Assembly: GCA_963746845.1 (NCBI GenBank)
Contig: CAVVCZ010000007.1
Coordinates: 1-64,000 of the forward strand
Direction of reading: 5' to 3'
Length of the DNA: 64,000 nt
DNA from: an uncultured Chloroflexia bacterium
GTDB taxonomy: Bacteria; Chloroflexota; Limnocylindria; Limnocylindrales; CSP1-4
A program made the translations under genes and the position numbers. The notes under the pieces are model-generated. The model did not search any database. It worked only from the letters and a program-made list of their open reading frames with translations, and was not told where the DNA came from. Shown here piece after piece: positions 11,637-24,608 of this stretch. The first letter of the stretch is position 1, and the number at the start of each line of letters is the position of its first letter.

Positions 11637-12662
11637 CTACGGCGTCGGGACTCGCGCCGGATCGATCCGCAGGACGGCATCGCCCTCGAAGCTCGAGACC
11701 CACACGGAACCGAACGCTGCGAACGGAGGCCCGAGCGCCGGGAAGCCGAGATCGACCGCCGGGCCGAGCGCGGCGGACTTCCGGTCAAGCCGCCGGATCG
11801 TCCCGGCGTCGAAGTCCGTGAGCCACACGGAGCCGAAGGCATCGATCAGGCCGCCGGGGGTCCCACCGACCGGGACCTTCCGCAGCTCCCTGGTCCTGAT
11901 GTCGATCTGGAGCAGGTCCGGCGACCCGCGGCCGGTCGCCCAGATCGTCCCATCCACGAGGAGCAGGACACCGTAGTGGCCGACTGCCCAGTGATCGGTG
12001 ATCCGGCGGGTCTTCAGGTCGAACCGCCAGACGACGTCGCCGTCCGGGCCGCCACCGCACCACAGCCCGGAGCCAACCACTGCCAGGCCCCAGCACGACC
12101 CGCCGATGTCGAACGTCTCGCCGGTCCTGAGCGTGTCGGGATCGAGCGCGGTCAGGGAGCCGCCGTGGTAGACGTAGACGTCGCTGCCGACGCGGATCAG
12201 ACCGCCGGCCTCCGGCACGTGGACGGTCCCGGTCACCTTGAGCGTCTTCGGATCCAGCCGGGTCATGACCCCGGCGTTGTACGACGCCGACCAGAGCTGC
12301 CCGTCGAAGAACTCGACGCCGCCCTGGGTCGGAAGGTCGAGCGGGGTCACGGTGTTGGTGGCCGGGTCGATGATCGAGACGTCGTAGCTGCGATGGTCGT
12401 CCACCCAGATCCGCCCGTCGCCGGCGTCGAGATAGAGCGGCCCGGTCCCGGGCGGCTCGCGGATGGCGGCGACGATCGCGTCGGCGAGGGGCACCACGGA
12501 TGGGGTCGAGGCGGGCGACGGGGTCGAGGCGGGCGATGGAGACGCAGCGGGTGTCACCGTGCTCGCGGGAAGTGTCGGCCTGGCGGGTGTCGGCGCGTTT
12601 GCTCCACCGCACCCGACCAGGAGCGTTGCGAGGAGCAAGCTCGGGACCGGACGCGATCTCAT
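11637..12662 (-). CDS. Lipoprotein with beta-propeller (YncE/Vgb-like) repeats
   Basis: Lipobox LLVGC, Pro/Ser linker, repeated G.xW...xxRxDP.T blades; start overlaps the upstream stop. Confidence 0.8.
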   Translation of the reverse strand: MRSRPVPSLLLATLLVGCGGANAPTPARPTLPASTVTPAASPSPASTPSPASTPSVVPLADAIVAAIREPPGTGPLYLDAGDGRIWVDDHRSYDVSIIDPATNTVTPLDLPTQGGVEFFDGQLWSASYNAGVMTRLDPKTLKVTGTVHVPEAGGLIRVGSDVYVYHGGSLTALDPDTLRTGETFDIGGSCWGLAVVGSGLWCGGGPDGDVVWRFDLKTRRITDHWAVGHYGVLLLVDGTIWATGRGSPDLLQIDIRTRELRKVPVGGTPGGLIDAFGSVWLTDFDAGTIRRLDRKSAALGPAVDLGFPALGPPFAAFGSVWVSSFEGDAVLRIDPARVPTP

Positions 12663-13858
12663 GGCACCGCGATCGCCTCGATCGCCCCGCTCGTGACGAC
12701 GACGACGGCCGATGGATCGTCGACGATGTCGATCGCCATCCCGCCAAGGGTCAGCGCGTCCGACACGACCCCGGCCGACGGGTCGACCCGCGAGATCACG
12801 AACTGATCCATGAGCGCCCAGACGGCCGCCTTTCCGGCCCGGACCTGGGTGGCGGGTCCGTCCGGGAGGGGCAGCGCGACCGTTGGCGTGCCGGTCGTCG
12901 CGTCGAACCCGATGACCCGCGAGCCGTCCGCGGGGTCGATCAGCCATGCGGTCGACGCGGTCAGGACCAGCTGGCCCTGCCGCACCCCGGCCGATCCGGC
13001 CGGCAACGTCGACCGACCGACGACCTGGTTCGTTCGCGGGTCGATCCGGACCAGCTCGCCGTCATCCAGCATCGCCCAGACGTGATCGTCGTCCGCGGCG
13101 AGCGCCCGGACTGCCCCCGGCAACGGGACCTGCGCGACGATCGCCCCGGTTGCAGGGTCGAGATGGGCGACGGCCCGACCCACGACGGCCCACAGCGACT
13201 GACCGGCGCCGCTGATCGGCCCGCTGGCGACTGTCGAGGTGATGACCGCGACGCCGGTTCGCGGATCGACCATCGTGAGCGGCTTCCCATCCACCGCGAC
13301 CCACAGGACGCCTCCGGCCGCGACCAGCTGCGCGTTGGTTGCCGAGGCGCCGGTCGAGATCGTGACGGTGGCCGCGGCCGTCAGCGTCTTCCGATCGAGG
13401 TGCTGCAGGACCATCGACGTGCCGGACCGCTTCAGCACCCAGAGCTCCCCGTCGACCGCGACGAAGCCGTCGACCTGACCGGACAGGGGCGCGCTGAGCA
13501 GGACGTCCGGATGGCTCGGGCTCGGGAGTGCGGCCGTGCTGTTCGATGGCAGGGTCAGGGGCTGCGCGGACGGCAGCACCGTCGGCCCGGGGGCCGCAAC
13601 CTTGCCGGCGATCGTGAACAGCGACCAGACGGCGCCCGCAACCAGCGTGACGGCGACGACCGCCGAGACCGCGAGCACGCCCCACGAGCGCCCACCCGTG
13701 AGGCGAACCGCCCAGCCCCGCCGTTGCGGCGTCGCCGAGATCGCGGAACGAACGGCCTGGCGGGCCGCCGTGGAGCTCGTCGTCGGGCCGTCGCTCAGGT
13801 AGACGCGGAGCCGATCGCTCATGGCGGTCGTGTCGAGGTCGCGACGGTCGGAGGTCAT
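12659..13858 (-). CDS. Putative anti-sigma factor with TM helix and extracytoplasmic beta-propeller
   Basis: Directly downstream of the ECF gene with a 4-nt overlap; short N-terminal domain (LRVYLSDGP...ATPQRR), TM helix and propeller blades. Confidence 0.7.
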   Translation of the reverse strand: MTSDRRDLDTTAMSDRLRVYLSDGPTTSSTAARQAVRSAISATPQRRGWAVRLTGGRSWGVLAVSAVVAVTLVAGAVWSLFTIAGKVAAPGPTVLPSAQPLTLPSNSTAALPSPSHPDVLLSAPLSGQVDGFVAVDGELWVLKRSGTSMVLQHLDRKTLTAAATVTISTGASATNAQLVAAGGVLWVAVDGKPLTMVDPRTGVAVITSTVASGPISGAGQSLWAVVGRAVAHLDPATGAIVAQVPLPGAVRALAADDDHVWAMLDDGELVRIDPRTNQVVGRSTLPAGSAGVRQGQLVLTASTAWLIDPADGSRVIGFDATTGTPTVALPLPDGPATQVRAGKAAVWALMDQFVISRVDPSAGVVSDALTLGGMAIDIVDDPSAVVVVTSGAIEAIAVP

Positions 13859-14433
13859 GACGCCTCCCCCCGGATCGCCGTCGAGCGCTCCTCGGTCAGA
13901 AGCGCGGCACGCAGTGCCCGGGTTGCATGGTGGAGTCGTGACTTGACCGTCCCCGGGGGGACATCGAGGAGGGCGGCTGCCTCGGTCGCCGTCAGCCCGA
14001 GGTAGTAGGTGACGACGAGGACGGCACGGTGGTCGGGCGACAGGTGACGGAACGCGCGATCCATCTCGTCGCGGCCGGCCAGTTCCGTCTCGAGGTCACC
14101 GGGCGCACCAACCTCGTTCGGTCGCTCGTCGGCCGCGCCGCTCGAGGCGAAGGGGCGGACCGCGATCCGGGCGACGCGCTCGCGCCGGGCGCGCCGGACC
14201 GAGGCGCGGACGAGGAGGCGGTTGACCCAGGCATCGAAGCGACCCGGGTCGCGGAGACCGGGCAGGTCTCGCCAGGCGCTGACGAGCGCGTCCTGGACGG
14301 CGTCCTCCGCGACGTCGAAGTCGCGCACGATCCGGTAGGCCGTCGCGAAGAGGGCGTCGATCGACGTCTCGAGGAGGATGTCGAACGCCTCCCGATCCCC
14401 GTCGCGTGCCTGCTGGACGAGCGCTTCTCGCAC
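13855..14433 (-). CDS. ECF RNA polymerase sigma factor (alternative start 14535)
   Basis: AEDAVQDALVSAWRDL..LRDP.RFDAW (region 2); LSPDHRAVLV...GTVKSRLHHA (region 4). Confidence 0.92.
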   Translation of the reverse strand: MREALVQQARDGDREAFDILLETSIDALFATAYRIVRDFDVAEDAVQDALVSAWRDLPGLRDPGRFDAWVNRLLVRASVRRARRERVARIAVRPFASSGAADERPNEVGAPGDLETELAGRDEMDRAFRHLSPDHRAVLVVTYYLGLTATEAAALLDVPPGTVKSRLHHATRALRAALLTEERSTAIRGEAS

Positions 14434-14589
14434 CGGACTGCCGCCTGGGCGTACCGCGATGGCCGCGGCCGCAGGATACGACGCGGGTGCGGCGTCCCCG
14501 CCTCCGATGCCGAGCCGAAGCGTCTGGCTGCCCATGTCGTCCCGTCCGGAGCTGCCTCGGCGAACGTCAGCCGCGGTCCCGCTCGGGTC

Positions 14590-16981: not shown

Positions 16982-19300
16982 TCAGACCGGTGCAGTCTCC
17001 TGCGTGCTCGCGAACCATCGCGCGACCTGGAGACGGGTATCGACGCCGAGCTTGTTGAAGATGCTCGCGACATGGCTCTCGACGGTGCGCTCGGAGATGA
17101 ACAGGCGCGCCGCCACCTGGGCATTCGTCGCGCCATCGGCCACGAGCGCCGCCACTTCCATCTCGCGCCGCGACAGCGGACCGGGTGATACGGACGGTGC
17201 GGCCGGAGGGGCGGCCGGCCGCCGCGCATCGACCGCATAGTCGACGACCTCGTCGCGAGTCATCGCCAGCCCGGCGGCGTACGCAGTCAAATACGCCGCC
17301 TCTCCCAGCGCATGGCGGGCATCGTCGGCCGCTCGCCGCCGGGCATCGCGGTACGGTTCCATGAGGGCCGAAGGGATCGACTCGAAGATCATGTCTGAAG
17401 CACCCAGCAGGGTGGCGGTCCGAGATGCAGACCCTCGCGTCATCTCGATCGAGGCGAGCAGGGCAATGGTTTGCGCGAGGCCAGTCCGATCGTCAAGCTC
17501 ACGCTCGAGAGCGACGGCTCGTTGAGCAAAACCGGCGGCTTCGTCGCGATCTCCACGGCCCAGGCTTGCGCGGGCAAGCAGCCGGAACATGATCCCGCGA
17601 ATCCATGTCTCGCCCAGTTCCTCACTGAGATGCACGCCCTCGCCTGCGATCGCGATCGCCGCATCGAAGTCACCCTGCCCGAGGAAGGCGTATCCGCGCG
17701 CATCCAGGGCGTGAAGCGTCGCGGCCTGCAGGTGCATGGACCGCGCCAGGTTGAGGGACTCGTCAGCAAACGCGGCGGCGTCGTCCGAACGGCCTTCGAC
17801 CCACGACACCAATGAGAGGAATGCCAGCGAACGCGCGACGACATCCGCGTCGCCGATTGCGCGACCGATCGACCCGGCCTCAGCGAACATCTGCCCGGCG
17901 AGCGTGTAGTCATTCTGCAGGAAGGTGACGACCCCGGCGGTCGATAGCGCGCGGGCACGTGACCTCGTGGCAGCCGGGACCGACTGAAGCAGCGCAGCGA
18001 AGACGCGGCGAACGTCGGTGATCGGTCCCTGGGCCGACCAGTAGACCCACAGGTCGCTGCAGATGCCAACGCCGCGCTCCGCCTCCGAGGGATCACCAAG
18101 ACAGAAGTCGATCGCGGCCCAGAGGTTGGCTCGCTCCGCCCGGACCCGGCGAAACAGCTCGACCTGGCGCTCATCTTCGGCGCCCACCGCAACGGCAAGA
18201 TCAGCGATCCAGTCCCGGTGGCGCGCGCGCAATGTTTGTTCGGCTCCTGCCTCTCGAAGCCGCTCGCGGCCGAACTGGCGAAGCGGTTCGAGGAGCCGGA
18301 AGCGGTCGGCGGCCTCTCCCTGTCGTCGTTTGAGCACGGACTTCTCGACGAGCGACCCGACGAGCTCCGGGATCTCCTCGGCTTCGAGCCCGTCGCCGGC
18401 ACACACCGCCTGTGCCGCATCGAGCTCGAACCCACCAGCGAATACCGAGAGGCGGCCCCACAGCCATCGCTCGTGCTCACTCAGGAGCTGATAGCTCCAG
18501 TCGATCGCCCCGTCGAGGGTCTGCTGGCGGAGCGATAGGCTGCGGTCCCCTGTGCCCAACGCCCCGAGCCGGGCTGAAAGTCCACGATCGAGGGCGTCCA
18601 GGCCGAGAGCGTTGAGCCGGACCGCCGCCAGCTCGAGCGCCAGCGGGATGCCGTCGAGGTGGGTGCATACGCTCAGGACCGCGGCGGCGTTCGCGGCGTC
18701 CGCGGCGAAGCCTTGCTGGACGGCACTCGCGCGCTCCACGAACAGGGCCACGGCGTCCGATCGGAGAAGGGCCTCCGGCGACGCATCGCCATCGTCGGGC
18801 AGCGACAGGGTCGGTACATCGATCACGACTTCGCCGGTGACCCCGAGGGCCTGCCGGCTCGTGGCCAGGATCCGCACGTCGGGACAGGCGCGCAGCAGTG
18901 TTCCCGCCAGGACGGCCGCGGCGTCGTGGACGTGCTCGCAGTTGTCGAGGATCAGGAGCGGCCGTTTGTCGGCGAGATAGTCGCTGAGGGTGGAGACGGC
19001 CCAGCTGGCTGAGTGGTCCTGGAGTCCGAGCGCGGCGAAGACCGCCTGCGGGACGAGCTCGGGGTCCTGGATGGGCGCCAACTCGACGAACCAGACGCCA
19101 TCGGGGTACTGGCGGGCGCTCTCCCGGCCGGCCCGCAGGGCGAGCTTCGTCTTGCCGACACCGCCGGCCCCGGTCAGCGTCAGCAGCCGCGTCGAGACCA
19201 GGGCCCGCTTGAGGTCGGCCAGGCCCTGACGGCGGCCCACGAAACTCGTCAGTTCGACTGGCAAGTTGCCGGCATGCAGGGTGGCTCGGGTGGGCGCCAA
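16982..19300 (-). CDS. STAND ATPase/TPR/LuxR-HTH transcriptional regulator
   Basis: GNLPVELTSFVGR, Walker A GAGGVGKT, LILDNCEH, LDGIPLALELAA, and a C-terminal HTH (LSRREMEVA...KLGVDTR). Confidence 0.93.
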   Translation of the reverse strand: MAPTRATLHAGNLPVELTSFVGRRQGLADLKRALVSTRLLTLTGAGGVGKTKLALRAGRESARQYPDGVWFVELAPIQDPELVPQAVFAALGLQDHSASWAVSTLSDYLADKRPLLILDNCEHVHDAAAVLAGTLLRACPDVRILATSRQALGVTGEVVIDVPTLSLPDDGDASPEALLRSDAVALFVERASAVQQGFAADAANAAAVLSVCTHLDGIPLALELAAVRLNALGLDALDRGLSARLGALGTGDRSLSLRQQTLDGAIDWSYQLLSEHERWLWGRLSVFAGGFELDAAQAVCAGDGLEAEEIPELVGSLVEKSVLKRRQGEAADRFRLLEPLRQFGRERLREAGAEQTLRARHRDWIADLAVAVGAEDERQVELFRRVRAERANLWAAIDFCLGDPSEAERGVGICSDLWVYWSAQGPITDVRRVFAALLQSVPAATRSRARALSTAGVVTFLQNDYTLAGQMFAEAGSIGRAIGDADVVARSLAFLSLVSWVEGRSDDAAAFADESLNLARSMHLQAATLHALDARGYAFLGQGDFDAAIAIAGEGVHLSEELGETWIRGIMFRLLARASLGRGDRDEAAGFAQRAVALERELDDRTGLAQTIALLASIEMTRGSASRTATLLGASDMIFESIPSALMEPYRDARRRAADDARHALGEAAYLTAYAAGLAMTRDEVVDYAVDARRPAAPPAAPSVSPGPLSRREMEVAALVADGATNAQVAARLFISERTVESHVASIFNKLGVDTRLQVARWFASTQETAPV

Positions 19301-19374
19301 GGCCCTCGGAGCCTAGCCCTGTGAAGGCGCTTGAGCAAGGCGCGGACGTCGTCGCTGTTGTGATAACCCGCAGG

Positions 19375-19408
19375 AATCCGTGCCGCTGTCCGTGTTAGCC
19401 CCGATGGC
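19375..19408 (+). promoter_or_regulatory. 34-bp motif upstream of the small Cys-rich ORF
   Basis: AATCCGTGCCGCTGTCCGTGTTAGCCCCGATGGC. Confidence 0.55.
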
Positions 19409-19436
19409 AGGGCTCCCCCGACGGTCGACAGTGGCC

Positions 19437-20630
19437 TCATCGACGGGACCGGACTCCGGGAACCCGATCGGACGAAAGGAGGACCACGATGCCCGCCCTC
19501 GAAAGCGCCGAGATCGTCGAGACGACGAACACTCCGGCCCGCAAGGCGTGCCTCACCGCCGGCTGCGCGTGCAGGGACGCGCGGATCGTGTCGTTCCGCC
19601 GGGCTGCGTTCCACGCAGCCGTCGCCCGAAGTTCCGGCGAGACCGCCGACCGGACCATCCCGGCCGAACCCGAGTGGCGGATTCCCACGATGGACGACCC
19701 GACGATCGGGGGCGCCATCGACGACTGAGGCGGCACCAGCGTCGAGCCGAGCGGGATGCCGTCGGCGAGGTAGATGCCGGTCGGGCCGTCCGGCAGCAAG
19801 TCGAACGTGAAGCCGACGTCGTAGCGCTCGAGGATGGCGCTCATCACGGTCGCCCCGTCGACGCGGTCGCCGGCGACGAGGGTCCCGAGGAGCCGGCCGT
19901 CGGCGAGCGGATGGCCTGGCGAAGCATGGAGCACACGTCCGTCGTCGAGGACCAGCCGGACGACCTCGTGGGTCGGCGGGACCGGGGTCTGGCCGATGCG
20001 CGTGACGGTCGCGACGAAGCGCCGGCCGGCTGCATCGATCGACCAGACGTGCATCCCCACGCGGACGTCCTCGATCGCGACCTCGCCGCCGAGCGTCGCG
20101 ATCCGCGTCCCCCGGGCGAGGCAGATCGGGCAGTTCGGCTGCGTGGCCGGCACCTGCTGATCGATGGTCACCGCGCCGTGGTCCTCGATCGTGCCGGTGG
20201 ATCGGCGGCCCGCGCCGGCGCCGGGCGGCGGCATGTTGAGGTAGTCAAACCGATAGCTCCCGCTCGCCGCCGGATCGAGGGTGATCGCCCGGACCTGCTT
20301 CCAGAGCTGGTAGATCGCAAGCTTCTGGGCGTCCGTGAAGGTGGAGCCGGAGATGCCGAGACGGGCGGTGACGGCCGCGAACCCGTCGGTGTCGGCCTGG
20401 GCCTGCGGGAAGTTCTCCTTGGCGACGGCCATCTCGTCCGCACGGGCCACCGGGTACAGGTCGGGGTCGCAATACCAGAGCGGGCCGAACTCGTCGATCA
20501 GGTGGAGCTTCAGCTCGGCCGTCGTCAGCGCCCGGCCGGCTGACGGCGCCGGTGGCGACGGTTGGCTGGTCGAGCACGACGCCAGGACCACGAGGATGAA
20601 GAGCACGGCAGCGAGGCGGGATCGGCTCAT
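19437..20630 (-). CDS. Lipoprotein with C-terminal Hint (intein-like) domain; the natural end is probably near 19725
   Basis: Lipobox VLASC; Hint block A CLARGTRIAT..G...IED.RVG; block B SPGHP; terminal TFDL...IYLADGIPLGST. Confidence 0.85.
   Translation of the reverse strand: MSRSRLAAVLFILVVLASCSTSQPSPPAPSAGRALTTAELKLHLIDEFGPLWYCDPDLYPVARADEMAVAKENFPQAQADTDGFAAVTARLGISGSTFTDAQKLAIYQLWKQVRAITLDPAASGSYRFDYLNMPPPGAGAGRRSTGTIEDHGAVTIDQQVPATQPNCPICLARGTRIATLGGEVAIEDVRVGMHVWSIDAAGRRFVATVTRIGQTPVPPTHEVVRLVLDDGRVLHASPGHPLADGRLLGTLVAGDRVDGATVMSAILERYDVGFTFDLLPDGPTGIYLADGIPLGSTLVPPQSSMAPPIVGSSIVGIRHSGSAGMVRSAVSPELRATAAWNAARRNDTIRASLHAQPAVRHALRAGVFVVSTISALSRAGIVVLLSSDRVPGVRSRR
19489..19728 (+). CDS. 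Small Cys-rich hypothetical protein (79 aa, CLTAGCAC)
   Basis: Strong RBS GAAAGGAGGA 5-6 nt before the ATG, GC-rich third codon positions and an upstream shared motif. Confidence 0.7.
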   Translation: MPALESAEIVETTNTPARKACLTAGCACRDARIVSFRRAAFHAAVARSSGETADRTIPAEPEWRIPTMDDPTIGGAIDD

Positions 20631-20775
20631 CAGGACCATGACCGCTCGACCATCGGCCAACGACGTGGTTCGCCCTCGGTGGGTTCCGCCGACGAGGCGG
20701 CTGTGCACGCGAGAGCCCGGGCGGCGATCGCCAACCCGGGCTCCTGGTTCGGTGTCGGTGGACGACGGCGTGCCG

Positions 20776-21024
20776 TCAGCCCCCCTGTTCGACCTCGTAG
20801 AGGGTGTGGGCCTCGAGCCCGTGGGCCTCGCGATGGACGCGCGTCGCGGTTTCGCGATCCGGCGCGTCGACCAGGCAGAAGACCTTGCCGTTCTCCTCGT
20901 CGACCCAGTAGCTCTTGTAGTTCACCCCGTACTTGCCCTGAACCTTGAGGTCGGCCTCGTGGGCGCCCGCGACGGCCTCAGCGGTCACGCCGGGAATGTC
21001 ATGCATGTCCATGTACGTCGGCAT
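20776..21024 (-). CDS. DUF4242 / SCO4226-like small protein
   Basis: YMDMH...AHEADL.VQ.KYGVNY..YWVDE..GKVFCL.DAP...VHREAHG. Confidence 0.85.
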   Translation of the reverse strand: MPTYMDMHDIPGVTAEAVAGAHEADLKVQGKYGVNYKSYWVDEENGKVFCLVDAPDRETATRVHREAHGLEAHTLYEVEQGG

Positions 21025-21127: not shown

Positions 21128-22180
21128 TCACAGCCCCAGCTCGTCCGCACGCCGCGCGAGCTCCACACGTGACTGGACGCCGAGCTTCACATAGGCGTTC
21201 GCGAGGTGCGTCTCGACCGTCCGGTCGCTGATGTACAGCCGCCTCGCGATCTCGAGGGCGGTCTGGCCGTCGACGGCAAGCCGCACGACCTCTCGCTCGC
21301 GCTGGCTCAGCGCGCCGACTCCGACCCCGAACGCCGGCCCGCGCCGTCGCTGGTGGGCGCCGACGAGGAACCGCTCCACCTCGCGGAGCACGGCCTCGGC
21401 GTCGCCGACCCACGGGACGTGGTCGATCCCCGGCAGCTCCACGAGCTGCGCCCCGGGGATTCGCGCGGCCAGGTACCGGGCGTTGCCGACGTCGAACCAG
21501 CGCTCCTCGGTCCGATGAAGCACGAGGGTCGGCACCGAGACGCCCGGCAGGATGTCCCGGACGTCGATCTGCGAGTTCATCCGGACGAGCGCCGTCGCCA
21601 TCCCGGGGCTCGCGCCGGCCCGAAGGTAGCGCGCCCACCAGCGTCGATAGCGCTCGTCGGCCAGGGCGGTCGGGTTGTGCTGGATCCACCACTCGCCCGT
21701 CTCCCAGGCGCGCTCGATCCCCGCGAGGAAATCGGCGAACTGCTCGGGCGACCGACCCCACGGGTAGTCGTCGTCGCGCAGCCAGCGGGCATACGAGCCA
21801 TAGGCGATCAGCGCCGACGTCCGCTCGGGGTAAGTGCACGAGAACACGATCGAGAGCGGACCGCCCTCCGAGATGCCGAACAGCGCCGCCCGGTCCGAGC
21901 CGACTGCGTCCAGCACCGCGCCAATGTCGGCCATCCGCTCGGCGAAGGTCGGCGGCTCGGCGACCGGATCCGACAGGCCGGTCCCCCGCTTGTCGAAGAG
22001 GATCAGGCGGCTGAACGATGCGAGCCGGTTCAGGAACTGGCTGAGATGCGGTTCCTCCCACGCGACGTCGAGGTGGGAGACGAAGCCGTGCACGAGGACC
22101 AGGTCGAGCGGGCCGTCGCCGACGACCTGGTAGGCGATGCTGACGCCATCGCTCCTGGCGTACCGGGTCTCGGGCCGCAC
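21128..22180 (-). CDS. Alpha/beta hydrolase-fold sensor fused to a LuxR HTH
   Basis: TRYARSDGVSIAYQV.G.GP, FDKRGTGLSD, GISEGG; C-terminal LuxR HTH. Confidence 0.9.
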   Translation of the reverse strand: MRPETRYARSDGVSIAYQVVGDGPLDLVLVHGFVSHLDVAWEEPHLSQFLNRLASFSRLILFDKRGTGLSDPVAEPPTFAERMADIGAVLDAVGSDRAALFGISEGGPLSIVFSCTYPERTSALIAYGSYARWLRDDDYPWGRSPEQFADFLAGIERAWETGEWWIQHNPTALADERYRRWWARYLRAGASPGMATALVRMNSQIDVRDILPGVSVPTLVLHRTEERWFDVGNARYLAARIPGAQLVELPGIDHVPWVGDAEAVLREVERFLVGAHQRRRGPAFGVGVGALSQREREVVRLAVDGQTALEIARRLYISDRTVETHLANAYVKLGVQSRVELARRADELGL

Positions 22181-22322
22181 GGCGGAAGTCTAGACCCGGT
22201 GTCCTGCCCCCCACGAATCCGTACCGCCACGGAGGTAACGGACGCGTCCTCGACCTAGCGTGGCCGGCAGTGGTCGGTCGATAACCGACCCGAAGCCAGC
22301 CCGTGAAGGCAAGGAGGACGCC

Positions 22323-22970
22323 ATGACGACGACGACCGCGAAACCGGTCGTGTCCACCGCCGGTTACCTGCTGGAAGGCACGCTTCTCGAGGCCTGCTCG
22401 TGCGGCGTCCTCTGCCCGTGCTGGGTCGGCGAGGATCCGGACGGCGGCCAGTGCTTCGCCTTCAACGCCTACCACTTCGACCACGGAACGATCGGTGACG
22501 TGGACGTGGCCGGGCTCAACATGGTCCTGATCGTCCACATCCCGGGCAACGTCCTCGCCCCCGCGTCGTGGCAGGTCGTGATGTTCGTCGACGACGTGGC
22601 GACGCCCGCCCAGAAGGAGGCGATCGTCGGCGCCTACATGGGCCAATTCGGTGGCCCGCTCGCCGATCTGGCCGGGTTGATCGCCGAGGTTCGCGAGGTC
22701 CGCTCGGCCACGATCACCCACCGGATCGTCGGTGGCGTAGGCACGCTCCGGATCGACGACATCCTCGAGGCCGAGCTGGAGCCGTTCCGCGCGGCCGACG
22801 GCACGATCACGACCCTCCGGGACAGCCTGTTCAGCACCGTGCCGGGCTCCCCGGCGTACGTGGCGAAGGCGTCGACGAACCGGGTCAACCTGCCGGAGCA
22901 CGGCCTCGCGTGGGAGTTCAGCAACCGCAACGCGATCCAGGCCGACTACCGGATGGAATTCCGGGGATGA
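22323..22970 (+). CDS. DUF1326 domain protein
   Basis: LEACSCGVLCPCW.GEDPD...C motif; AAGGAGGA RBS. Confidence 0.85.
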   Translation: MTTTTAKPVVSTAGYLLEGTLLEACSCGVLCPCWVGEDPDGGQCFAFNAYHFDHGTIGDVDVAGLNMVLIVHIPGNVLAPASWQVVMFVDDVATPAQKEAIVGAYMGQFGGPLADLAGLIAEVREVRSATITHRIVGGVGTLRIDDILEAELEPFRAADGTITTLRDSLFSTVPGSPAYVAKASTNRVNLPEHGLAWEFSNRNAIQADYRMEFRG

Positions 22971-23725
22971 CCGCGATCGCGCGCCGGGAGGCCCGCCTCG
23001 ACGTCCGCTGGATCGTCGGCGCGGCATGGGCCCTGGCCGCTGCAGCGGAGGTGACCGGCCGGGGCAGCCTCCTCAACCACGACCAGCTGATCCATGGCGG
23101 CCTGCCCCGGCCGGTCGCACTCGTCCTCTTCCTTGTCGCGTGGCAGTTCATGGTCGCGGCGATGATGCTGCCGTCGGCGCTGCCGCTGATCCGGCTGTTC
23201 GACCGGGCCTCGGCGACGCAGCCTCGGGCGCGGGCGGCGCAAACGGCGTTCGTCGCCTCGTACGTGCTCGTGTGGACCGCGTTCGGCGCCGCGGCGTTCC
23301 TGTTCGACACGATCGTCCACGCGACGGTCGATGGGTCACCGTGGCTCCTGGCCCACGGCTACCTGATCGGCGGCGGCACCTTGATCGTCGCCGGTCTGTT
23401 CCAGTTCTCGCCGTTGAAGGAGGCCTGCCTGAGGCAGTGTCGCAACCCGGGCGCCTTTCTTCTCCGCTACTACCGTCGCGGGGTCGGACGGGCATTCGTG
23501 ACCGGCGCATGGCACGGCGTGTTCTGCCTCGGCTGCTGCTGGGCGCTGATGCTCGTCGCGTTTGGCCTGGGGATGGCCAACCTTGTCTGGATGGCCGGGC
23601 TGACACTCCTGATGACGCTCGAGAAGCGCTGGGCTAACGGCCCGCTGCTGGCGCGCGTCAGCGGCGCCTGGCTGACGCTGGTCGGGCTCGTGATTGTGGC
23701 GCAGCCGCTCTGGGGTACGAGCTAG
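22967..23725 (+). CDS. DUF2182 metal-binding membrane protein
   Basis: MVAAMMLPS, QFSPLKEACLRQCR, GVFCLGCCWALM; the usual partner of DUF1326. Confidence 0.88.
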   Translation: MTAIARREARLDVRWIVGAAWALAAAAEVTGRGSLLNHDQLIHGGLPRPVALVLFLVAWQFMVAAMMLPSALPLIRLFDRASATQPRARAAQTAFVASYVLVWTAFGAAAFLFDTIVHATVDGSPWLLAHGYLIGGGTLIVAGLFQFSPLKEACLRQCRNPGAFLLRYYRRGVGRAFVTGAWHGVFCLGCCWALMLVAFGLGMANLVWMAGLTLLMTLEKRWANGPLLARVSGAWLTLVGLVIVAQPLWGTS

Positions 23726-24534
23726 ACCGGGACGGCGGCTCCCTGGAGGAACGCCCGCCCGCGGATCTCGGCGCTGCCGGCGAGCTGCGGGTCCTGGTCG
23801 TACCGCGCGGCATTGAGCGCCTGGTTCACGCCGTGCACGAGGTCGGTCAGCGGCGCGTTCGGATGCTGTCGGAGCTCGTGCAGGATGTAGTACGTCGCCG
23901 CGCCGTTGTACCGGCCGTTGATCTCCGCGTCGGCCGATGTCTGGCCGCTCTTGCAGCCCGAGATCAGCGCCAGGTGGAGCTTCGCCGGCGCCGTGAGCCG
24001 GGTCAGGGTCACGCCACGCTTGCGGGCCTTCTCGATCTCCTCTGCGATCTCTCGCGGCGGGTAGATCTCCCGCGCCTTCTGGCCCTTCGGCAGCAGCGCC
24101 CGCGTGAGGTTGCCCGAGTGGCAGCTGTCCGAGATCCAGACGAACTCCACGCCAGCGGGCACCCTGGAGAAGATCTTGTTGAACTGGTCGTCGCGGATCG
24201 CGTGCTTGCTGCTCCAGTCGAAGTCGACCGGGCAGATCACCTCGTCGAGACCGTCGATCTCGTGACCCGTCCGCGACGGCATCTGGGCGCCGTGGCCGCT
24301 GTAGTGGAAGAGCGCCCGGTCGCCGGCTGTGAGGCCGGCAACGAAGGTCTCGAGCGCGGCGAGGATGTTCGCGGTCGTGGCCGTGGCGTCGGTGACCGTC
24401 TCGATGTCGGCCGGCTTGAAGCCGGCGAGCTGGGTCAGGTACGCCGTGACGTCCTTGATGTCGTTGACGCATCCATGGAGCTCGTTCGGCGCGGGGTAGG
24501 CGTCGATCCCGACGAGCAGGGCCCTGCTGGCCAT
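23722..24534 (-). CDS. Caspase-family (C14, metacaspase-like) peptidase
   Basis: RALLVGIDAY..LHGCVND, HYSGHG (catalytic His), DSCHSG (catalytic Cys), QDPQL. Confidence 0.9.
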   Translation of the reverse strand: MASRALLVGIDAYPAPNELHGCVNDIKDVTAYLTQLAGFKPADIETVTDATATTANILAALETFVAGLTAGDRALFHYSGHGAQMPSRTGHEIDGLDEVICPVDFDWSSKHAIRDDQFNKIFSRVPAGVEFVWISDSCHSGNLTRALLPKGQKAREIYPPREIAEEIEKARKRGVTLTRLTAPAKLHLALISGCKSGQTSADAEINGRYNGAATYYILHELRQHPNAPLTDLVHGVNQALNAARYDQDPQLAGSAEIRGRAFLQGAAVPV

Positions 24535-24608
24535 GAGGTCACCTCGAGTCGCGGAGGAAGACGGCCACCCTACCGCCGTGCCGTCTGGCCGGCGTCTCGG
24601 GAGCGCCG

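Follow-up and report, generated by a model that had tools for sequence, protein, structure and literature searches.

A Chloroflexota lipoprotein family with a C-terminal Hint domain that may release itself from a putatively disulfide-stapled N-domain

The 64,000-nucleotide stretch analysed here (the window; positions 1 to 64,000 of contig CAVVCZ010000007.1, assembly GCA_963746845.1, from an uncultured soil bacterium of the Chloroflexia, order Limnocylindrales) contains, on its minus strand, a gene for a predicted lipoprotein in which an N-terminal domain (N-domain) is followed by a C-terminal Hint domain. We estimate, with a probability of roughly 0.55, that this protein is exported through the Sec and signal peptidase II (Sec/SPII) route, that its N-domain is stapled by a disulfide, and that the Hint domain cleaves itself off at Ile169/Cys170, most likely by hydrolysis. 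Two patterns among relatives carry this reading: Hint-less forms that end repeatedly at the residue before Cys170, and the paired loss of Cys54 and Cys167. The family is a new and uncharacterised one of a known kind, the bacterial proteins that autoprocess through a C-terminal Hint domain, and does not amount to the redox-gated ligation system proposed earlier from the DNA letters alone (the sequence-only reading).

Results

Identity and active site of the Hint domain

The C-terminal half of the protein (residues 170-298; 19737..20123, minus strand) is predicted to be a Hint fold, based on profile matches and a structural model. Hint_2 (PF13403) is the only Pfam match of the lipoprotein and was matched in 38/38 family members at E <= 0.01, with 2.5e-9 as the best value. 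For the window protein the score is 26.9-27.4 bits, below the gathering score of 28.4, and the match spans profile positions 1-51 of 147. Some relatives pass that score (e.g. 39.7 bits), and matches across the family are limited to the first 33-110 of the 147 positions. Among solved sequences, a profile of the family matched the CatC consensus intein (3.4e-6), the Ssp DnaE intein carrying a CPGC trap (4GIG/3NZM; 1.1e-4), the bacterial intein-like (BIL) domain of Clostridium thermocellum (1.5e-3) and Hedgehog (2.3e-3). Its HMMER alignment with the Mtu RecA mini-intein covers chain residues 1-135 of 139.

An AlphaFold2 (AF2) model of the full protein, built with a 65-row alignment, has a mean predicted local distance difference test score (pLDDT) of 92.2 and a predicted template modelling score (pTM) of 0.71. 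Foldseek returned 61 chains at E <= 0.001, with E values to inteins, the BIL domain and the Hedgehog Hint domain of 3e-7 to 5e-5. The Hint half of the model was matched to Mtu RecA with a template modelling (TM) score of 0.76 and a root-mean-square deviation (rmsd) of 2.6-2.7, to BIL 2LWY with a TM score of 0.78 and an rmsd of 2.4, and to Hedgehog 6TYY with a TM score of 0.72 (0.68-0.72 for 1AT0 and 6TYY).

Conservation was assessed in 56 diverse rows at 34-51% identity and in 100 aligned genome loci. The motif C167-P168-I169-C170 is encoded at 20121..20132, exactly where the sequence-only reading had placed it; Cys170 is Cys1 of the Hint domain and opens the block A motif C170-L-A-R-G-T-R-I. 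Block B, which that reading had recognised as SPGH, is S237-P-G-H240 (19911..19922), the equivalent of T-x-x-H, and Asp277 (19800..19802), of a T-F-D-L motif, falls on the T-F-D-L of block F in the alignment to the Mtu RecA mini-intein. Cys170, Leu171, Ser237, His240, Asp277 and Tyr287 are each present in 56/56 rows. In the genome loci Pro168, Ile169, Cys170, Ser237 and His240 are all 100/100, and Asp277 and Tyr287 are 99/100.

The conserved part of the family ends with the motif A-D-G-I-P-L-G-S296-T297-L298, whose last base is 19737 (S296-T297-L298 at 19737..19745). Ser296 is found in 55/56 rows and Thr297 in 54/56, with Thr or Ser at position 297 in 56/56. If the RecA alignment is extended without gaps across the last four chain residues, which goes beyond the HMMER alignment, Gly295-Ser296 would fall at the His-Asn positions, with Ser296 in place of the intein Asn and Thr297 at +1. 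This agrees with the earlier description of the terminus as lacking His-Asn. In 94 of the 98 loci whose 3' end is complete, the protein terminates 1-9 residues past L298. The catalytic set for an N-S acyl shift thus appears intact, while the set for Asn cyclisation appears to be absent and there is no C-extein. Without His-Asn and a C-extein, neither splicing nor C-terminal cleavage would be expected. The sequence-only description of a non-splicing Hint domain that follows a cargo domain and appears to retain its N-terminal junction chemistry therefore holds.

Longer proteins with the same type of Hint domain were not found at E <= 0.001, which is weak evidence. Hint-half matches do occur within large unrelated frames (459-2535 aa) in 14 Chloroflexota genomes, one of which has four matches on a single contig (G350:C15). 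These may be inteins or HINT modules of the polymorphic-toxin type.

Hint-less relatives and the predicted cleavage site

A search with the N-domain alone (exhaustive HMMER, E <= 0.001) yielded 349 clusters at 50% identity, and representatives of the best 150 were classified with our own N-domain and Hint profiles. A full Hint domain was present in 61/150. Sixteen of the 150 have their last residue right before Cys1, at C-P-x, and one stops a single residue earlier. Another 29 end 3-106 residues into the Hint domain, with no position used more than twice. In 37 the N-domain itself is truncated, and in six no C-P was found.

The Hint-less proteins have full signal peptides, and several are encoded on contigs of 15-40 kb. 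One is annotated by NCBI as a complete protein of 156 aa, from a Dormibacterota metagenome-assembled genome (MAG; contig L106). Its DNA reads ...V-C-P-L-TGA, and none of the frames holds a remnant of a Hint domain (best E 0.19 with tblastn and 0.35 with hmmsearch --max). In the relatives L103, L104, L105 and L107 the sequence goes on through C-P-I/C-L-S-A.. and encodes a complete Hint domain (E 1e-32 to 1e-37). As an origin of the C-P-x ends, selenocysteine or read-through at the Cys1 codon was considered and is excluded for L106, where the TGA has no Hint domain downstream. Searches for the DNA of further Hint-less forms found none for P0170 in genome contigs and none for P0162 in metagenome contigs; for P0175 only a Hint-bearing relative (L116) was recovered. 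The loci L108 and L109 were spurious.

The sole TGA within a match in 600 genomes replaces Trp52 in the second, apparently broken copy of a tandem pair (L102, G052:C45, 3043-3879), which also reads S-R-L for S-T-L at its end. This copy is probably a decaying duplicate.

A maximum-likelihood tree was built from 72 N-domains, 56 with and 16 without a Hint domain; the other 78 of the 150 were omitted as fragments or because they lack the C-P landmark. On this tree the rows without a Hint domain are scattered and require 13 changes, of which at least 5 are forced by well-supported branches. The tree thus indicates that the Hint domain was lost independently at least 5 times. A single base change at the Cys1 codon (TGY to TGA) would produce exactly the processed product, and the repeated fixation of a C-P-x truncation is the expected outcome for a mature protein that has residue -1 as its end. 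That Hint-less relatives end repeatedly at this residue is strong, though indirect, support for a cut at Ile169/Cys170.

Some Hint-fold domains are inactive, and the domain could instead be a stable structural or binding module that is never cut, with the Hint-less relatives as shorter paralogues. In the AF2 model the whole protein packs well as a single chain, which fits such a module. However, it is precisely the catalytic set (Cys1, Ser and His of block B, Asp of block F) that is invariant, and a non-cleaving domain does not predict that ends would fall at residue -1 16 times and at any other position at most twice. We regard a non-cleaving Hint domain as improbable.

Assignment of Cys167 to the N-domain

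The Cys170 of the predicted cleavage site is preceded at -3 by Cys167, and the sequence-only reading took C-P-I-C for a redox trap, in which a Cys167-Cys170 disulfide locks Cys1 until reduction allows the thioester to pass to an external lipid, glycan or protein, leaving a Hedgehog-like adduct. Several observations favour such a lock. Pro168 is invariant, as is the proline of redox-active CPxC motifs. The best or second-best matches to solved sequences are 4GIG/3NZM, whose engineered C-P-G-C aligns with C-P-I-C, and the genome of the window encodes oxidative-folding genes. A Cys-3/Cys1 disulfide governs cleavage in the CPGC construct and in the Pab MoaA intein, as stated in parts of PMC3922620.

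The distribution of Cys167 points elsewhere. Hint-less relatives, which lack Cys1, nevertheless keep Cys54, Cys167 and Pro168 in 17/17 aligned cases. Cys54 and Cys167 are the sole cysteines of these forms after the signal peptide, except in a tandem protein and in one row that has a further pair upstream. Variants with two N-domains before the Hint domain show a similar pattern. In P0150, P0180, P0187 and P0265, copy 1, which is not beside the Hint domain, pairs its equivalent of Cys54 with a second cysteine in the loop, and in P0263 copy 1 lacks the Cys54 equivalent and has two cysteines in the loop instead.

The two positions also vary together. Position 54 in the 100 loci is Cys in 96, Val in 3 and a gap in 1, and position 167 is Cys in 97 and Tyr or Arg in 3. 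The three loci with Val54 are the same three with Tyr or Arg at 167, and all three keep Pro-Ile-Cys170. Two more genomes of that order combine Ile54 or Val54 with Tyr167, and a congener retains both cysteines. Cys54 and Cys167 were thus lost together in 5/5 cases, with Cys1 staying, and a single loss was found in 0 of 103 distinct loci.

Retention without the Hint domain, the tandem copies and the covariation with Cys54 together assign Cys167 to the N-domain. The simplest reading would be a Cys54-Cys167 disulfide that leaves Cys170 free as the nucleophile. The redox trap fares poorly, since Cys167 persists without Cys1 and is lost only alongside Cys54; the evidence points instead to a pairing of Cys-3 with the cysteine of the W-Y-C motif, an outcome that the sequence-only reading had itself named as contradicting its proposal. 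Furthermore, Hint-less lineages are unable to form a thioester although their N-domain has the same last residue, which means that in these lineages the N-domain has no need of an adduct for its function, and no sterol-recognition-like region or other module follows the Hint domain. Taken together, a redox-locked ligation is very improbable.

In the genome of the window a VKOR gene lies next to a DsbA-like gene, which makes it probable that exported cysteine pairs are oxidised in this host. In the small-genome relatives a DsbA-like gene was found in 2/5 (one under the family cut-off), with no pattern relative to the loss of the cysteines.

The N-domain

The N-terminal cargo domain (residues 33-166, ~135 aa; 20133..20534, minus strand) carries the signature C54-D-P-D-x-Y-P within a W-Y-C54-D-P-D motif, and Cys54, the putative partner of Cys167, is encoded at 20469..20471. 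It matched no Pfam or NCBIfam family. A sequence-profile search of PDB gave a best E of only 0.26, and Foldseek a best E of 0.05 with TM < 0.3. Modelled alone, the domain has a pLDDT of 93.6 and a pTM of 0.87, with four helices packed on a 3-4-stranded antiparallel sheet. VIA-align ranked VirB8-like TrwG first (best Z 6.2), followed by PepSY-like YpmB/YpeB, NTF2-like proteins and cystatins, all below Z 8, the level that the tool itself sets for a common arrangement. The best scores in the ESM Atlas, 0.79 and 0.86, were to unnamed clusters. The arrangement is at most weakly similar to the alpha+beta folds of NTF2, VirB8, PepSY and cystatins, and no function is drawn from it. With negative family searches and unclear fold matches, the claim of a novel N-terminal domain marked by WYCDPD.YP stands.

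The only partner of the N-domain is the same Hint domain, or none in the Hint-less forms. In distant members the lipobox is replaced by one or two PG_binding_1 domains (P0240, P0248, P0227) or by PEGA (P0237). Since relatives are anchored by a lipobox, PG_binding_1 or PEGA, the N-domain and Hint cassette is, as judged from these architectures, a cell-envelope module.

Gene limits and export signal

The whole open frame (19437..20630, minus strand) encodes 397 aa and a stop, with residues 1-~299 forming the conserved part. The frame is open from 20708 down to the stop at 19437-19439. Translation probably starts at the ATG at 20630 (MSRSRL...) or at the ATG at 20639, three codons further upstream; a near-identical database protein starts MVLMSRS. 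The N-terminus from the minus-strand open reading frame is MSRSRLAAVLFILVVLASC. It contains a signal peptide of residues 1-19 (20574..20630) with the lipobox L-A-S-C19, the Cys19 codon lying at 20574-20576. Cys19 is invariant in 38/38 close relatives, and Lgt and LspA are both encoded in the genome of the window with scores above their cut-offs. The lipobox after a signal peptide and the presence of Lgt and LspA identify the protein as a bacterial lipoprotein with predicted lipidation, in agreement with the sequence-only reading.

The same reading had ended the gene at 19725, where there is no in-frame stop; the frame continues for 96 codons more, to 19437. The resulting C-terminal extension (19437..19736, including the stop) is lineage-specific and unconserved. 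With tblastn the extension was matched in 0/80 related loci and the core in 80/80. Nucleotide homology between the window and a genome of the same genus is confined to 19735-20693, at 74% identity. The extension does not appear to be part of the family. The GC content at third codon positions (GC3) is 0.85, still coding-like, which does not decide whether the extension is translated in this genome; given this value, it may derive from other coding sequence.

A near-identical soil-metagenome contig departs from the window at 19711 and then reads P-R-P-T-S-stop (five codons), an ending identical to that of database protein P0002. This divergence, with a stop five codons on, indicates a rearrangement breakpoint right at the 3' end of the lipoprotein gene. 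A scan of 19200-21000 for promoters and terminators found none.

Distribution and gene context

The family comprises at least 1197 proteins at E <= 0.001 (word-indexed search, 7999 candidates scored), and the best 120 relatives are 266-383 aa long. A pattern scan of one genome per species found a relative in 227 species genomes. Nearly all carry the label Chloroflexota or Limnocylindria; a few are Dormibacterota, and some are soil MAGs that are probably mis-binned. The genome of the window (3.56 Mb, 92% complete) has a single copy. Within the class, the gene is present in 69/201 genomes, a tally that includes the unpublished genomes G133 and G067. One taxonomic family accounts for 50/61 and the window's own family for 14/62. 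In a sample of the phylum, 44/401 genomes had a match: 30 were near full length, across several families, and the other 14 covered the Hint region only, within much larger frames. Two family genes (G273:C9:115924-116675 and G414:C152:33-841) each appear as two matches in different frames, overlapping or adjacent, which are frameshifts or assembly errors.

None of the neighbours in the window is conserved at 80 related loci, the best case being a generic ABC ATPase (28/80). Among 48 loci of the Limnocylindria type, 17 carry a gene for a DeoC-like aldolase upstream and 14 have one for a Peptidase_S9 protein alongside. Both are absent (0/12 each) from 12 loci of other Chloroflexota lineages, in which neighbours include GlnA, NadE, EPSP synthase and DAHP synthase. 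An operon or multi-gene system was considered and rejected, because neighbours vary between lineages and the shared ones read as lineage synteny. PADLOC found no match to defence or phage families.

In the window the lipoprotein gene is accompanied by genes for a STAND-type LuxR regulator, an SCO4226-like protein and an alpha/beta-hydrolase-LuxR fusion. The STAND-type regulator (16982-19300, minus strand; 772 aa) combines AAA/NB-ARC, MalT-like tetratricopeptide repeat and GerE regions. The alpha/beta-hydrolase is fused to GerE (21128-22180, minus strand), so that LuxR-family regulators flank the lipoprotein gene on both sides. Further along, a DUF1326 gene (22260-22970, plus strand; E 3.7e-48) adjoins one for a PpoB2 'copper chaperone' membrane protein (22970-23725, plus strand; E 1.6e-61). 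A caspase-domain protein (Peptidase_C14, E 3.6e-31) is encoded at 23722-24570 (minus strand), its frame remaining open upstream to 25191. At 11637-14535 (minus strand), two overlapping frames with DUF6923/beta-propeller-like repeats are preceded upstream by a gene for an extracytoplasmic function (ECF) sigma factor (13855-14535).

Discussion

The relatives of the window protein suggest the following course of events. The precursor would be exported through Sec/SPII and lipidated, and the N-domain (residues ~20-169) would fold after export, with formation of the Cys54-Cys167 bond. By homology, Hint 170-298 would then carry out an N-to-S acyl shift that turns the peptide bond between Ile169 and Cys170 into a thioester on the free Cys170 thiol, aided by Ser237 and His240 of block B and Asp277 of block F. 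With no His-Asn and no C-extein, splicing and C-terminal cleavage would not follow. The thioester would be resolved, most likely by water, and the Hint domain released. The product would be a lipid-anchored N-domain of ~150 residues that ends Cys167-Pro-Ile169-COOH, its tail stapled by Cys54-Cys167. Hydrolysis is probable since the Hint-less lineages manage with a free C-terminus.

Several points weigh against this scheme. Cleavage, thioester and disulfide are all inferred. The five genes that lost both cysteines are alike and may represent only one or two events, VKOR was found in 0/5 of the small-genome relatives whether or not they have the cysteine pair, and the check at the DNA level covers one Hint-less gene (L106). 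In addition, purifying selection on the Hint domain is strong throughout the phylum. Since a stop codon in place of Cys1 would give the same product, the domain must add something, such as timing, folding, a released fragment or ligation. Pro168 and Ile169 would seem to be conserved beyond the apparent need of simple hydrolysis, and Ser296-Thr297-Leu298 are nearly invariant for no apparent reason. The selection on the Hint domain and the conservation of these residues leave room for ligation or control of timing.

Ligation need not be redox-gated. The C-terminus of the N-domain could be joined to an amine of peptidoglycan or a hydroxyl of a glycan, or pass first through a branched ester at Thr297, to give a doubly anchored protein. 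The strong conservation of a domain whose hydrolysed product a stop codon would supply is in keeping with such chemistry, as are the Thr or Ser invariably found at the +1 nucleophile position (297) and the peptidoglycan-binding or PEGA modules of relatives, which place the family at the wall. However, the Hint domain was apparently lost independently at least 5 times, always with ends at -1, no conserved partner gene lies nearby, and no acceptor-recognition module is present. Ungated ligation is therefore rather unlikely. Transfer to an external nucleophile, as the sequence-only reading had it, is less likely than hydrolysis, in view of the at least five lineages that encode a free C-terminus at -1 without a Hint domain. 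It is quite unlikely that the thioester joins the C-terminus of the N-domain to an acceptor in the envelope (peptidoglycan, an S-layer glycan or a lipid) and so forms a sortase-independent tether between membrane and wall; if it did, the Hint-less lineages gave this tether up.

The family stands close to several known systems. Passages of PMC7765530 and PMC5874633 describe B-type BIL/Hint_2 domains as occurring in exported, non-conserved bacterial proteins, with intein-like N-motifs, no C-motif and an expected N-terminal autocleavage. The window protein likewise is an exported bacterial protein that matches Hint_2 and has N-motifs only, although its match is partial and below the gathering score. 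Unlike in B-type BIL proteins, the Hint domain of the family lies at the very C-terminus, with no C-flank and no C-terminal cleavage at stake, and is always joined to one particular N-domain. A-type BIL domains, defined in the parts of PMC7765530 concerned by a conserved C-terminal His-Asn, differ in that the family has G-S at these positions. Splicing inteins differ in the same respect, and also in that only 1-9 residues follow L298 in nearly all loci of the family.

The family resembles Hedgehog and Hog proteins in its signal peptide, its lipid-anchored cargo and a C-terminal Hint domain that would act on the N-terminal junction only. In contrast to Hedgehog, no sterol-recognition region follows the Hint domain, the junction is P-I/C-L rather than G/C-F, and the lipid is the acyl-glyceryl group of an N-terminal lipobox rather than a C-terminal sterol. 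Nucleophile transfer is not in evidence for the family. Of the proposal of a Hedgehog-like system, the layout of cargo followed by terminal Hint domain is upheld, whereas nucleophile transfer is disfavoured by the Hint-less lineages and their free C-terminus. The CPGC trap of the engineered Ssp DnaE intein and the Cys-3/Cys1 disulfide of the Pab MoaA intein, both described in parts of PMC3922620, share with the family a Cys at -3, and the trap (3NZM, 4GIG) also a Pro at -2 in a motif that can be aligned by sequence. Unlike the Cys of the CPGC trap, Cys-3 of the family covaries with Cys54 and outlives the loss of the Hint domain.

A close description is a passage of PMC2362128 (Buerglin 2008), which credits Dassa and Pietrokovski with the observation of secreted bacterial proteins that end in a Hint-like domain and carry two conserved cysteines upstream of it. 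As far as that description allows comparison, the window family shares the signal peptide, the upstream two-cysteine region and the terminal Hint-like domain, whereas the proteins named in the passage are from Myxococcota and Gammaproteobacteria. The designation of the locus as an undescribed system is not sustained, as there is no multi-gene system and secreted bacterial proteins with a terminal Hint-like domain already appear in that passage. In the literature on bacterial Hint, BIL and intein-like domains, lipoproteins and Chloroflexi, no paper on this lipoprotein-Hint family was found.

Terminal Hint autoprocessing is textbook biology for Hedgehog; to our knowledge, it is almost unstudied in bacteria. 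The family provides a natural experiment, in which lineages that dropped the Hint domain, time after time exactly at the predicted scissile bond, show where the mature product ends, and the disulfide is assigned by the paired loss of cysteines. Judging from its predicted N-cleavage-only chemistry, the Hint domain (129 residues) might serve as a cleavage tag. The protein is also a small model (~280 residues) for the question of why a single-turnover, self-cleaving module is kept when a stop codon would give the same protein, and the family could show whether Hint thioesters of bacteria ever serve ligation.

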